A stretch of DNA of 64,000 nucleotides from a virus: the IMG/VR virus record IMGVR_UViG_3300037419_001822, positions 49,440 through 113,439 of that record; one strand, given 5' to 3'. The notes under the pieces were generated by a model. The model ran no database searches and was not told the DNA's origin. It saw only the letters and a list, made by a program, of their open reading frames with translations. The position numbers and the translations under genes were made by a program. Positions 20,982-60,222 of this stretch are shown in pieces. Positions within the stretch are counted from its first letter, which is position 1, and every line of letters begins with the position of its first letter.

Positions 20982-22088
20982 ATGGGGTCAAGCGTGTCCT
21001 GCGCTACGTGTGGTGAAGCGACGACCCGACGGATGTACTGCTCCGTCCAGTGCAACTCGAAGGCCAAGGCCGAGCGGCAAAAGCGGCCGTGCGCTGGTGG
21101 ATGCGGCCGGTTGGTCCACCGTCCTGGTCACGGCTCGTCGGGCGACGCGCCCCGTATGTGCAACCCCTGTCGCCGCGCCAGGCGCTGCTCGGAGCCAGGC
21201 TGTGCGGAGCGGCCCGAGGCCAGGGGGGTTTGTCGCCGCCACTACCATCTCGCCTGGAAGTCCCGCGCCTTCGGCAACCCCGAGTGCTCGGTAGTGGGCT
21301 GCTCTCGCGGCGCGCGCAGCCACGGCCTCTGTCAGGTCCATGCGATGCGGAAGCGGCGCGATGAGGGTTACGTCGACCCGCCGCGTACCCGGCTGGTCGA
21401 CAGAACGTGCAGGCGTTGCGACCTGGCGTTTAGGGGCTACTGCGGCACGAAGTACTGCTGGACCTGCCGATCGGCAGTACTGGCCGAGCGCAACCGTGCG
21501 AGCGCTCGCCCCGCGAAGACCGGGCCGTGCAGCCACTTCTCGATCAACGACTGCCGGGCGTGTGGCCGCCTCTTCGTTGACAAGGGTAAGCGTGGTCGAG
21601 TCGCATGCTCGGCCGAATGCCGTGGGCAATTGGCCCGGGACCGGGCGAATCGACAGCGCGTCTGCGCCGGTTGTGGGGTGCCGGTGCCGAAGGGGTCGTA
21701 TCAGCGTCGGTGTGAGCCTTGCCGGGTAGCCCGGCGCGAGGCGGTCCGCCGGGCGGCCTCGAAGGTGGCCGGGAAGCATCGCGCGCGGGCACGGCGCTTC
21801 GGGCGTCGCTACGAGCCCGGGTTGACCTGGCGGACGATCGCCAAGCGCGACGGGCTGCTCTGCTGGCTCTGCGGCCAGTGGACCGACCCCGATGACTTCG
21901 ACCTGGTCGAGGGGAGGGATCGGCGCAGCGCCGTCGCCTGCGGCCCGACCTACCCGACGCTCGATCACGTCGTCGCGCTGTCCCGGGGCGGTGATCACGT
22001 CGGCGACAATGTCCGCCTGGCCTGTCACGCCTGCAACGCACGGAAGGGCGATCGAGATCCGGCCGAGTACCTCACCTGCCTGGGATGA
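20982..22088 (+). CDS. HNH endonuclease with multiple N-terminal Zn-finger repeats
   Basis: RDGLLCWLCG..PTLDHVVALSRGGDH..NVRLACHACNARKG. Confidence 0.85.
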   Translation: MGSSVSCATCGEATTRRMYCSVQCNSKAKAERQKRPCAGGCGRLVHRPGHGSSGDAPRMCNPCRRARRCSEPGCAERPEARGVCRRHYHLAWKSRAFGNPECSVVGCSRGARSHGLCQVHAMRKRRDEGYVDPPRTRLVDRTCRRCDLAFRGYCGTKYCWTCRSAVLAERNRASARPAKTGPCSHFSINDCRACGRLFVDKGKRGRVACSAECRGQLARDRANRQRVCAGCGVPVPKGSYQRRCEPCRVARREAVRRAASKVAGKHRARARRFGRRYEPGLTWRTIAKRDGLLCWLCGQWTDPDDFDLVEGRDRRSAVACGPTYPTLDHVVALSRGGDHVGDNVRLACHACNARKGDRDPAEYLTCLG

Positions 22089-23275: not shown

Positions 23276-23565
23276 CGACCCGCCCGGGTCGCAACACGGG
23301 CAACTGGCAGCGCCTGTCGAAGGCGTTCAAGGCCGACTGCACGCGCACTCGCAGGCCGTGCTGGCTGTGTTCGCAGCCGATCGACTACTCGCTGCCCTAC
23401 GACGACCCGGGCGCCTTCTCGATCGACCACTTCTACCCGGTGAGCACGCACCCGGATCTGGCCGAGGTTCCCGCGAACTTCCGGGCCAGCCACTTGGACT
23501 GCAACAAGCGACGGGGGAACCGTCCCCCGCGCCCGTCGCTGGGTGTGACGTCGTTCCGCTGGTAG
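23272..23565 (+). CDS. Small HNH endonuclease (HK97 gp74-like terminase cofactor)
   Basis: CWLCSQPIDY..SIDHFYP..NFRASHLDCNKRRG. Confidence 0.85.
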   Translation: MTTRPGRNTGNWQRLSKAFKADCTRTRRPCWLCSQPIDYSLPYDDPGAFSIDHFYPVSTHPDLAEVPANFRASHLDCNKRRGNRPPRPSLGVTSFRW

Positions 23566-56503: not shown

Positions 56504-56755
56504 ATGGACCCCAAGCAGTTCGCCCTCGACACCGCCGAACGCGCCGCCAAGACGTTCATCCAGGCCCTCGTCGGCTTCTTCACCGCCGGGTCGCTGATCA
56601 CCCACGTCGACTGGAAGCAGGCGCTGCTCGTCGCCGCCTCCGCCGCCCTGTACTCCGTCCTGTCCTCGGTCGCCTCGCTGACCGTCGGCGACGGTGACGC
56701 CTCCCTCGTGCGGGCCCGCAAGGCCGACGAGCCCGGGGCGCACGAGGCCGTCTGA
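56504..56755 (+). CDS. Holin (r1t-like)
   Basis: DTAERAAKTFIQAL..VDW..SVLSSVAS. Confidence 0.85.
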   Translation: MDPKQFALDTAERAAKTFIQALVGFFTAGSLITHVDWKQALLVAASAALYSVLSSVASLTVGDGDASLVRARKADEPGAHEAV

Positions 56756-56783: not shown

Positions 56784-57071
56784 ATGACAGCCCTGGTGGC
56801 CTCCGGTGCCGACACCCTGGCGGGCACCGACCAGCCCACCTGGCAACTGCAGGCCCGCTCCGCCCCGTCATCCGGAACCTCGGTCACCACCCCGCTGGTG
56901 GACATCGTGCTCGGCCACCTGCCCGGCACGGTCACCCTCGCCGCGCCCTCCCTCGGCACCGCCGTGCTCGTGACCGCCTCCCTCGGCACCGCCGAGCTGG
57001 CCACCCCGGGCGGCGGCAGCGCCGTCCTCGTCTCCACCGACGTCGCCACGGCCGTCGTCGTCACCACCTGA
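56784..57071 (+). CDS. Hypothetical virion protein
   Basis: GGAGG RBS; Thr/Ala-rich. Confidence 0.5.
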   Translation: MTALVASGADTLAGTDQPTWQLQARSAPSSGTSVTTPLVDIVLGHLPGTVTLAAPSLGTAVLVTASLGTAELATPGGGSAVLVSTDVATAVVVTT

Positions 57072-57087
57072 GCCAGAAAGGACGACC

Positions 57088-57420
57088 GTGCCGGACTTCA
57101 CCATCAAGCAGCACGACACCAGACCGATCATCCAGGTCAACCTGGCCGTGGGCGGCAGCCTCGTGAACCTGACCACCGCCACCAGCGTCAGCTTCATCAT
57201 GGCCCCGGCACTCGGCGGGGCGGCCACCATCGACGCGGCGGCCACCATCGATGACGCCGCCACCGGCCTGGTCTCCTACACCTGGGCTGCCGGGGATACC
57301 GACACCGTCGGCAGCTTCGACGCCGAGTGGGAAGTGCTCTGGAGCGACGGCTCCAAGCAGACCTTCCCTACCGACTCCTACCTCTCCATCGAGATCGTCG
57401 CCGACCTGGACGGCTCCTGA
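57088..57420 (+). CDS. BppU-N-like adaptor domain protein
   Basis: FTIKQHDTRP..VNLT..GLVSYTW..DT..G.F.AEWEV..QTFPT. Confidence 0.75.
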   Translation: MPDFTIKQHDTRPIIQVNLAVGGSLVNLTTATSVSFIMAPALGGAATIDAAATIDDAATGLVSYTWAAGDTDTVGSFDAEWEVLWSDGSKQTFPTDSYLSIEIVADLDGS

Positions 57421-57722
57421 TGCCCACCCCCGCGCGCCCGTTCCCGCGCGACCGGGGCCACGACCGGGTGCCCTACCACCGGCGCTACCTCGACCAGCTC
57501 GGCCGCCCGCTGACCGGCAAGGTCACCATCACCCGCCGCGACCACCACGCCACCGGCGAGGTCGTCGTCCCCGCCGGGTCGGTCCCGGTCGAGCTGGTCG
57601 ACGGCCACCTCAACGTCCGGCTCGCTCCCGGTGAGTACGAGCTGACGGCGCAACTGCGCACCCGCGACAACGTCGGCGTCCTCCACCGGGACGTCGTCAC
57701 CGTCGCCGCCCCCGACGCCTGA
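57420..57722 (+). CDS. Hypothetical Ig-like protein
   Basis: TGATG overlap; GRPLTGKV..PGEYEL. Confidence 0.6.
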   Translation: MPTPARPFPRDRGHDRVPYHRRYLDQLGRPLTGKVTITRRDHHATGEVVVPAGSVPVELVDGHLNVRLAPGEYELTAQLRTRDNVGVLHRDVVTVAAPDA

Positions 57723-57736
57723 GAGGAGAACCCCTT

Positions 57737-57847
57737 ATGACCACCGACGGCAGCGGCATCACCGGCGAGGTGACCTGGGTCCTGACCGGACCCGACGGCA
57801 AGGTCAAGTCGTCTGGCGGAGATACGCCGCGAGAGCCTCGGCCCTAG
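57737..57847 (+). pseudogene. Orphaned 5' stub of the tail gene at 58292
   Basis: GAGGAG RBS; MTTDGSGITGEVTWVLTGPDGKVKSSG aligns with MLDNTEGLHGFVTWELRAADGTLKATG. Confidence 0.7.
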
Positions 57848-58262
57848 CGGGGTCGTCGGCGAGCATCCCGGCTGCTGCGTTGCAGCCATGACACAGCCAG
57901 CCACGGTAGACGTTCCGGTCGTGGCAGTGATCGACATCGGTGGCTGTCTCCTCACCGCAGGAGTCGCATAGTCCACCGGACATGACGTGGGCGATCTGCT
58001 CCTCCGTCATGCCGTACTTCGTCCGGTAGCGGTGTCTGAGGACGCTCACTCTCCGGCGATCGGGGTTCTCTTCTCGCCAGCGGCGAGCGGCCTCCCGACC
58101 CATGGATCGGATCTTCTCTAGCTCAACGGGATCCTTTCTGCGCTCGGCCACCCGAGCAGCCTGCTTGGCCCGGTTCTCGGGCTTGGCGTACCACTCGCGG
58201 GCTCGCTGTCTCGCACGTTCCCGCTCCTCTTCATCCATCTCGCGGCGTGGCGTCTTCGTCAT
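57804..58262 (-). mobile_element. Free-standing EndoVII-family (His-Cys) homing endonuclease
   Basis: KYGMT..CDSCG..VDHCH..RGWLCHGCN..GMLADD..AYL; only credible minus-strand gene. Confidence 0.85.
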
Positions 58263-58291
58263 GTCTCAAACATTACGACACAGGAGTGACA

Positions 58292-58819
58292 ATGTTGGAC
58301 AACACCGAGGGTCTGCACGGCTTCGTCACCTGGGAGCTGCGCGCGGCGGACGGGACGCTCAAGGCGACCGGCGAGTCTCGGAATATCATTACGGACGTCG
58401 GCGACACCCTGTACGCCCAGCGCGGCTCCGGCGTCGGCACCCCGGCCCAGCCGACCGGCATGAAGCTGGGCACCGGCTCCACCACGGCCGGGAACGCCCC
58501 GGCCAAGAACGGCACCGGTGCCGCGCTGGCCACCTACCTGTCCGGGTCGAACAAGGCGTTCGACGCCACCTTCCCGTCCGGTGCGCTGGCGGCCGGGCTC
58601 GGCTACACGGTCACCTACAAGCGGACCTACGCCGCCGGGGAGGCCACGAGCGCGAGCAACGCGATCACCGAGGCGGTCATCGTCACCGACACGATCGCCA
58701 CCGACGCCACCTCGACGGCGGCGAACACGATCAGCCGGGTCGCGCTGACCGGCATCGCATCCAAGCAGAGCACGGACACGCTGACCGTCACCTGGACGCA
58801 CAAGCTGCTCGGGGCGTAG
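58292..58819 (+). CDS. Virion/tail accessory protein
   Basis: AGGAG RBS; NIITDVG..GTGST..ITEA..DTLTVTW. Confidence 0.75.
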   Translation: MLDNTEGLHGFVTWELRAADGTLKATGESRNIITDVGDTLYAQRGSGVGTPAQPTGMKLGTGSTTAGNAPAKNGTGAALATYLSGSNKAFDATFPSGALAAGLGYTVTYKRTYAAGEATSASNAITEAVIVTDTIATDATSTAANTISRVALTGIASKQSTDTLTVTWTHKLLGA

Positions 58820-58837
58820 CCCTTCCCGACCAGCACT

Positions 58838-58872
58838 CCGGCCCCGTCCCGCCTCGCGCGGGGCGGGGCCGG
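58838..58872 (+). terminator. GC-rich stem-loop
   Basis: CCGGCCCCGTCCCGC / GCGGGGCGGGGCCGG (one G-T pair). Confidence 0.5.
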
Positions 58873-58908
58873 GCCATGTCCGCGCCCAGATGAGGGGGTG
58901 TCGCCGCG

Positions 58909-60222
58909 ATGGCGATCAGCCGCGTCGACACCGTCACGACGACCACGTCCAGCACGGCCACCACGATCACCCCGACGGCGGCGACCGGGGTGGCCTCCGG
59001 GGACCTGCTGATCGTGGTGTGCACCGCGTCCCGGGCCGCCGCCGTGTTCAGCGCGGCCTCCTACACCGGCTGGACGATCCTGCACGACCAGAACTCCGAC
59101 TCCTACAACACCCGGGTGCTGACCCGCATCGCCGACGGCTCGGCCGCCGACGCGCCGCCGCAGATGGACTACACGGGGGCCACCGCCGCCGCCATCGCCA
59201 TCGCCGCCGCCTACCGGGGGGTGGACACCACCACCCCGTTCATCGCCGAGAGCCTGGTCAACTACACCACGGCGGGCACGCTGGTGAACGGGCCGTCGCT
59301 GACCAACACCGACGCCGCCGCCTGGGGGGTGTTCTGGGCCGGGGCCCGCTCCACCATCCCGACCGCCCCGCCGGTGTCGTGGACGCCGGGCAGCGGGCTG
59401 CTGGAGCTGGAGGACTCTGACACCGGGCTGACCAACGCCAACGACTGCCCGAACACCTGGTGTGACTCGAACGGCACGGTGGCCACCGGCAGTGTCACCT
59501 ACTCGGCGACCCTGTCGGAGTCCGAGGCCCGCTCCCGGGCCTGGTCGGGGCTGCTGAAACCGGCCGTCGTCGGCGGCGGCACCGACTACACCGCGTCCCC
59601 GGCCGACACCGTGGGGCTCACCGATTCGGCGAGCACCACGCTGGGCGATCAGACCTGGGTCTCCGCGCGGGACTGGGTCGGCACCGACCCGTGGCCGGTC
59701 GGAGACAGCGCGACCGGCGCGGCGGTGAGCCCGGCCGACACCGTGCACGGTACCGACGCGGTCAGCGGCCTCCTCACTGTGGCCCGGTCGGCCGCCGATA
59801 CCGCCGGGCTCACCGACTCGGTGACCGCCACGATCGGCAACGTCGCCAACCCGGCCAGCACCCTCGGGCTCACCGACACGGTGACCGTCACCAAGAACCT
59901 GGTCCGCGCCCTCGCCGACACTGCCGGGCTGTCCGACGCGGTGACCGTCACCAAGAACCTCGCCCGCAGCGCCGCCGATTCCCTCGGGCTCACCGACCGA
60001 CTGCCGCTGCTGCCGCCGAGCACGGTGACGGCCGTGCCGGTCTCCACCACCCGGGTCGACCTGTCCTGGGACGTGGTGGCCGGGGCGACCGGCTACGACG
60101 TGCTGCGCGACGGCGTGGCGCTGGTCTCCGACCAGCCGGGCCACACCTACACCGACACCGGCGTCGCGGCGGGCCAGACCTACGTCTACACCGTGGTCGC
60201 CGTCCGGACCACGACCGGCTGA
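58909..60222 (+). CDS. Tail accessory protein with ADTxGLTD repeats and C-terminal FN3 domain
   Basis: GVASGDLLIV N-domain; repeats; VDLSWD..GYDVLRDG..YTDTG..YVYTVVA. Confidence 0.75.
   Translation: MAISRVDTVTTTTSSTATTITPTAATGVASGDLLIVVCTASRAAAVFSAASYTGWTILHDQNSDSYNTRVLTRIADGSAADAPPQMDYTGATAAAIAIAAAYRGVDTTTPFIAESLVNYTTAGTLVNGPSLTNTDAAAWGVFWAGARSTIPTAPPVSWTPGSGLLELEDSDTGLTNANDCPNTWCDSNGTVATGSVTYSATLSESEARSRAWSGLLKPAVVGGGTDYTASPADTVGLTDSASTTLGDQTWVSARDWVGTDPWPVGDSATGAAVSPADTVHGTDAVSGLLTVARSAADTAGLTDSVTATIGNVANPASTLGLTDTVTVTKNLVRALADTAGLSDAVTVTKNLARSAADSLGLTDRLPLLPPSTVTAVPVSTTRVDLSWDVVAGATGYDVLRDGVALVSDQPGHTYTDTGVAAGQTYVYTVVAVRTTTG

Follow-up and report, generated by a model that had tools for sequence, protein, structure and literature searches.

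Phage T4 SegF and SegG are free-standing endonucleases that reportedly home without introns and co-convert flanking markers, and in Aeromonas phage Aeh1 the nrdA gene is said to be split by the mobE homing endonuclease gene into halves that are both expressed and that assemble. In phage T6, SegB drives a segmental amplification in which a microhomology junction truncates the 3' end of segB (PMC13096335). Finally, the mORFs of fungal mitochondria are endonuclease ORFs that bring along a substitute for one end of a gene, the native end persisting as a remnant, in the order inserted C-terminus, endonuclease ORF and native C-terminal remnant; the described cases are atp6 of Allomyces macrogynus and atp6, atp9, cox2 and nad3 of Glomus sp. 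(PMC3630166).

The locus described here lies in a 64-kb window (the whole stretch of DNA that was analyzed, 64,000 nucleotides, GC 70%) forming the right-hand part of a 113-kb linear IMG/VR viral contig that is 88% complete (CheckV). An initial annotation had proposed that a tail gene is cut off here by an inverted EndoVII gene and restarted from a new 5' end, and the anatomy it described is borne out: a dead homologous stub led by a ribosome-binding site is followed by an intact antisense EndoVII-type gene whose stop codon lies inside the stub, and then by a short divergent spacer and a complete second 5' end with its own ribosome-binding site. The features are as follows, in window coordinates.

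56504-56755: r1t-type holin (Pfam), upstream of the locus and followed by three small ORFs before the stub
57722-57727, plus strand: ribosome-binding site of the stub, GAGGAG, overlapping the stop of an upstream 100-aa ORF
57737-57817, plus strand: stub of 27 codons, ATG at 57737, homologous to the N-terminus of a ~170-aa protein family
57737-57847, plus strand: stub ORF as now read, 36 aa, its last 9 codons being antisense nuclease sequence; stop codon TAG at 57845-57847
57804-58262, minus strand: EndoVII/HNH-type (beta-beta-alpha-metal) nuclease gene, 152 aa, intact ORF, PF02945
57815-57818: left junction, GGCG microhomology, comprising the stub G27 codon plus one nucleotide and, on the opposite strand, the nuclease R149 codon
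58263-58291: divergent spacer, 29 bp, 45% GC, separating the start of the nuclease gene from the restarted gene
58282-58286, plus strand: ribosome-binding site of the restart, AGGAG, within the spacer
58292-58372, plus strand: second 5' end, 27 codons, 26/27 GC-ending, called functional
58292-58819, plus strand: complete 175-aa virion gene, ATG at 58292, phrog_5417
58370-58373: right-hand GGCG, closing codon 27 of the restarted copy
58376-58390, plus strand: A/T-ending codon cluster TCT CGG AAT ATC ATT, codons 29-33, in the conserved N-[IL]-[IV]-T motif

Like the mORFs, the locus has an endonuclease ORF in a coding gene with a diverged foreign terminus in frame with the gene core, and it involves neither an intron nor an intein. 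The duplicated, diverged terminus flanks the nuclease, the inserted copy being continuous with the 175-aa ORF and the native copy displaced. It differs from the mORFs in that the 5' end rather than the 3' end is concerned, so that a ribosome-binding site and a start codon are also brought, and in that the nuclease is EndoVII/HNH-type and antisense rather than an in-phase LAGLIDADG or GIY-YIG ORF. The host gene, in addition, is a bacteriophage virion gene, and there is one instance only. The locus resembles T4 SegF and SegG in that a free-standing nuclease gene stands beside a conserved gene, with a donor flank that would replace that of the recipient and a resident allele expected to be resistant, whereas insertions of the SegF/SegG type lie between genes, with both junctions homologous and no stub, and the locus here has one non-homologous junction within a coding region. 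With Aeh1 nrdA/mobE it shares a free-standing nuclease gene inside a phage coding region, without intron or intein and with gene function apparently retained, but its upstream piece is redundant since a full replacement N-terminus is supplied. In the T6 SegB event, too, a rearrangement is associated with a nuclease, and its microhomology junction costs the nuclease gene its 3' end, but there a tRNA-segB unit is amplified in tandem under defence selection and no 5' end is replaced.

The phage is probably an uncultured actinobacterial one, because the relatives of the 175-aa gene come from viral contigs of soil and from MAG contigs of Arthrobacter and Jiangellaceae. DNA of the locus is present in 11 soil and rhizosphere runs (X1-X11). 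Cultured phages gave no match to the locus region at either the DNA or the protein level, and the viral contigs hold no relative of the upstream 100-aa or the downstream 437-aa protein, and hence no close relative of the phage. Upstream of the stub, a 110-aa ORF (57088-57420) matches BppU_N (baseplate upper protein) weakly (E 0.0017, below the cut-off), which fits a tail-fibre/baseplate module placed 3' of the lysis genes. Downstream, the 437-aa gene (58909-60222) has a second contig variant with ~20 differences over 58968-59079 in all four runs that were assembled, together with a joint skipping 125 nt (59079 to 59205) in the same four. The depth of the second variant is near that of the main contig (160 vs 180 in X1), and there is a depth spike of 450-1500 at 59127-59227; these features could reflect two co-existing haplotypes of the Thr/Ala-rich N-terminal region or a repeat common to other organisms. 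Elsewhere in the phage genome there are three further HNH-type matches (two to PF01844, one to PF13392), of which G000:C1:71396-71494 and 72798-72962 correspond to window positions ~21957-22055 and ~23359-23523 and G000:C1:8028-8156 lies outside the window.

Judged by its homology, the stub is a genuine N-terminus of the family, beyond chance expectation. It is matched by 78 of 120 family N-termini (tblastn), most closely by that of P0057 (21/24 identical, 87.5% over 24 aa), and its 27 codons align to family N-termini without a gap. With whole family proteins as tblastn queries, the stub homology ends exactly at 57817. The stub is without decay, its start and ribosome-binding site being kept and 25 of its 27 codons ending in G or C, while everything past codon 27 is gone. 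Stub and restarted N-terminus are identical at 11 of 27 residues (41%) and at 58% of nucleotides, in keeping with the earlier description of a homologous but diverged restart. The stub peptide TWVLTGPDGKVK, expressed as a degenerate DNA pattern, has no match in the viral contigs.

The antisense ORF that cuts off the stub matches Pfam Endonuclease_7 (PF02945) over residues 77-149 with an E value of 2e-13 (50.5 bits against a cut-off of 23.6), is the only PF02945 match in the 113-kb genome, and also matches several PHROGs 'endonuclease VII' families. In an alignment with its five nearest homologues the pattern CxxC…DHCH…CxxCN is invariant (C99, C102, D111, H112, H114, C124, C127 and N128); following T4 endonuclease VII, we take the Cys, Asp/His and Asn residues to have zinc and catalytic roles. 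Among sequences of solved structure the closest is that of the Hpy99I restriction enzyme, to whose nuclease domain the C-terminal 44 residues align. The closest homologues are P0122 (67% identical) and P0123 (57%), and matches in cultured phages are distant only, in Synechococcus and Pseudomonas phages; actinophages commonly have members of the EndoVII family. By composition the nuclease gene is foreign, with a GC3 of 75% against 96% in the flanks (93-97% in neighboring genes). It forms a separate ORF outside any intron or intein. Its stop codon (57804-57806) falls inside stub codons 23-24, and stub codons 23-26 provide, on their antisense strand, its last three codons (QTT) and this stop. No sigma-70-like promoter was found for the antisense gene, and the one terminator-like site at the locus is at chance level. 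The N-terminal half (58040-58230, residues ~11-75) contains two similar basic helical modules, …REWYAKPENR… and …RRWREENPDR…, which may be tandem DNA-binding repeats; their copy number varies among homologues.

The homologies of stub and nuclease meet within 2 nt, at GGCG. The nuclease family has a conserved end, …YLR, of which R149 corresponds here to 57816-57818, and relatives stop 1-6 residues further; the junction therefore abuts both homologies. As the initial annotation had noticed, AAG-x-x-GGCG is common to the two junctions, within the strings AAGTCGTCTGGCG (57806-57818) and AAGGCGACCGGCG (58361-58373). Deletion of 57819-58373 (555 nt, with GGCG on either side) joins stub codon 27 in frame to codon 28 of the restarted gene. 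The inserted unit is thus minimal, consisting of the nuclease ORF minus its last codon(s), 29 bp and 27 codons, and is an exact multiple of three.

The heptamer CATTACG occurs in only two copies in the 64 kb, at 58271-58277 in the spacer and at 58387-58393 in the A/T-ending codon patch, 116 bp apart and each preceded by GTCTC. The pair may be a fossil of codons 29-35 beside the nuclease or a shared protein-binding site. We do not rely on the fossil reading, since in a local-alignment control, with the spacer compared with the entire window, the patch came only joint third to fourth and the match did not become significant.

Secondly, the restarted gene is full length relative to its family, which comprises 741 homologues of mostly ~165-195 aa. 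Its N-terminus is typical of the family but of another lineage than the stub, with best matches to P0114 and P0031. An AlphaFold (AF2) model built on 50 homologues has a pLDDT of 87.9, and its top structural match is a tail chain of Haloferax virus HFTV1 (Foldseek E 2e-4; VIA Z 11.5, 135 residues aligned, rmsd 3.2), followed by the Klebsiella phage KP1 baseplate (Z 7.9), the GP4 fibre adaptor (Z 7.4) and the phi812 baseplate (Z 7.0). All of the best fold matches belong to phage tails, baseplates or fibres, and a tail-type component is a reasonable assignment from the model. The label 'tail gene' used earlier is in this respect upheld by fold, while annotation does not provide it: the protein has no Pfam domain, and phrog_5417 has no function assigned in PHROGs. 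In the model, residues 8-17 and 23-33 form confident strands, placing the first 27 residues within the fold; a gene without them could therefore not be expected to work, and a replacement start would be needed. Across the family, mean identity is ~33% in the N-terminal part vs ~70% for the remainder. Longer family members (243-262 aa; L009 3557-4345, with similar forms in L010, L011 and L086-L088, and L093 and L104 3001-3729) have an extra domain of ~70-90 residues after ~residue 55, which has no Pfam match in the 262-aa form.

Finally, the codons just past the restarted 5' end depart from the usage of the gene. Codons 29, 31 and 33 are TCT, AAT and ATT despite a GC3 of 96%, and the interval 58373-58393 is 43% GC in the 70% GC window, in agreement with the AT-rich codons that had been pointed out beside the junction. 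Only ~6 independent clusters of this kind (at least 3 A/T-ending codons in 5, with 25 high-GC3, stop-free codons required on each side) occur over ~16,000 positions of the whole 64-kb window. The present one lies a single codon from the position equivalent to the breakpoint, and the chance of such a cluster within ten codons of that position is, by a rough estimate, 0.004. The patch covers the most conserved DNA motif of the family. The codon AAC, here AAT, is kept in 13/13 relatives in one comparison and in 16/18 in another; ATC, here ATT, is kept in 13/13 and in 5/7, respectively, with ATC or GTC nearly everywhere. No relative has both AAT and ATT, and each occurs singly in a few. These substitutions hint that codons 29-33 may be a candidate nuclease site made resistant by synonymous change.

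In all 52 related loci surveyed the family gene is a single uninterrupted copy within 3-4 kb, and these loci show no stub-like second N-terminus above noise and no EndoVII gene nearby; they are distant (at most 68% protein identity) and are not true empty alleles. Conversely, none of 54 loci with nuclease relatives of at most 46% identity (viral and metagenome matches listed, P0123 not among them) has the family gene. No nuclease-free allele of this phage was found, and the Logan contigs of four runs, which drop rare variants, show no joint skipping the insert. The combination of stub, nuclease and new start is one known instance among the loci surveyed.

We favor as the probable origin the entry of a homing-endonuclease-type gene by recombination with a phage bearing a diverged allele, which would have brought the foreign 5' end. 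The donor would have been another phage with a diverged allele of the same tail-associated gene, and the incoming segment would have comprised the antisense nuclease ORF, the 29-bp spacer with its ribosome-binding site and at least the first 27 codons of the donor. On the side of the gene body the exchange would have been resolved by homology, while on the 3' side of the nuclease the segment would have been joined at the GGCG microhomology directly past resident codon 27. The resident 5' end and its ribosome-binding site would thereby survive as a dead 27-codon stub, the nuclease ORF would have lost its own last codon(s) so as to end in the antisense strand of the stub, and the tail-type gene would be expressed from the imported start. 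The stub end probably marks the cut point in the resident allele, and the A/T-ending synonymous codons 29-33 of the imported allele probably render the resident copy uncuttable. What we infer in this route is that the nuclease is active, where it cuts, that the resident copy is immune and which way the transfer went.

This origin is favored because the stub homology stops at 57817, because the junction abuts the end of the nuclease with GGCG, and because excision restores the frame. It is favored further because the GC3 of the nuclease is foreign and its motifs are intact, while a stub, second copy or EndoVII gene is found in 0/52 related loci, and because a rare A/T cluster lies near the breakpoint and the first 27 residues are needed for the fold. 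The recovery of an identical contig from three runs and the precedents (PMC3630166, PMC13096335) point the same way. Counting against it are the single instance, the absence of a close phage relative and of an empty allele among the sequences searched, the nuclease relatives (at most 46% identical) that never lie beside the family gene in the listed loci, and the occurrence of AAT or ATT singly in a few relatives. The nuclease also has no promoter-like site, and to our knowledge no member of the EndoVII family has been proven to be a homing enzyme. Furthermore, neither segment-wise identity nor rank correlation over 119 homologues tied either N-terminus to the gene body, the N-terminus vs gene-body correlations not being significant.

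A more far-reaching version, which we put forward tentatively, is that the unit is a self-sufficient homing cassette, with its own ribosome-binding site, start and cleavage-resistant copy of the first 27-34 codons, in which the stub would serve as left homology arm in the next round. Such a cassette would silently swap tail N-termini between actinophages and would represent a third way, besides introns/inteins and intergenic sites, into essential coding sequence. The earlier suggestion of a unit that moves as a cassette finds no second example in the 52 family loci or the 54 listed loci of nuclease relatives.

The main rival, which we regard as rather unlikely, is ordinary mosaic (illegitimate) recombination, in which the nuclease was a bystander upstream of the allele of one parent and a random crossover fell in codon 27 of the other, with no nuclease cut. 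Gene order around the family gene is indeed highly fluid: the gene lies directly after an r1t-type holin gene in L003, L067, L081 and L082, after a lambda-E-type major capsid gene in L009 (neighborhoods at L003 3730-4519, L009 2293-4345, and L081 and L082 2700-6014), and after three extra small ORFs here, and it behaves like a movable module. A junction microhomology of 4 nt only and a single example of the arrangement would also suit such an event. Random crossover does not, however, account for a junction within 1-2 codons of the natural end of the nuclease ORF, for a rare A/T cluster at the homologous position of the other copy at the low chance estimated above, or for an inserted piece that is both minimal and in phase.

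We consider it improbable that transfer went in the opposite direction, with the nuclease and the 175-aa gene native and a left block (the small ORFs and 27 codons of the other allele) brought in from elsewhere and fused to the 3' end of the nuclease gene. Relatives do not have the three ORFs between holin and stub at this place, and in L081 and L082 a homologue of the 110-aa ORF is found on the downstream side of the family gene; composition is alike on both sides (~96% GC3), as this direction would allow. It nevertheless leaves unexplained the foreign composition of the nuclease gene alone, and why the left block should end in a family gene start at a position matching the A/T cluster. In addition P0004, which has a stub-like N-terminus, is also the best match to residues 28-60 of the 175-aa gene (82%), weakly tying the stub to the gene body.

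If a tandem paralogue had decayed, the first of two ancestral copies being largely deleted or replaced by the nuclease gene, two homologous 5' ends would stand in tandem, each with a ribosome-binding site. We judge such decay very unlikely, since 0/52 related loci have two copies within 3-4 kb on either side, and since the stub is undecayed and yet nothing remains past codon 27, the break falling precisely where the nuclease ends. Lastly, it is hardly credible that two strain variants were fused into a chimera during assembly, or that an intron interrupts the gene and the stub is its first exon. The DNA does come from a metagenome assembly, and short N-terminal exons in phage genes are easily overlooked (PMC10448857), but one 3692-nt Logan contig spans 56400-59234 with zero differences in three runs (depths 180, 55 and 15; the samples may share one campaign), no Rfam family, introns included, matches across 57000-59200 even at E up to 1, and the downstream ORF needs no splicing, as it begins with a start codon of its own and a full family N-terminus.

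Should the favored origin by nuclease-associated recombination fail, the locus would be a recombination scar beside a selfish gene. If it is true, homing endonucleases can invade a structural coding region of a phage by carrying a replacement start, with no splicing device. The locus would in that case also provide a natural pointer to the target of an EndoVII-type enzyme, the stub end and the recoded codons together naming a candidate site of ~30 bp, and it would supply a concrete mechanism for the N-terminal mosaicism of the 175-aa protein family.
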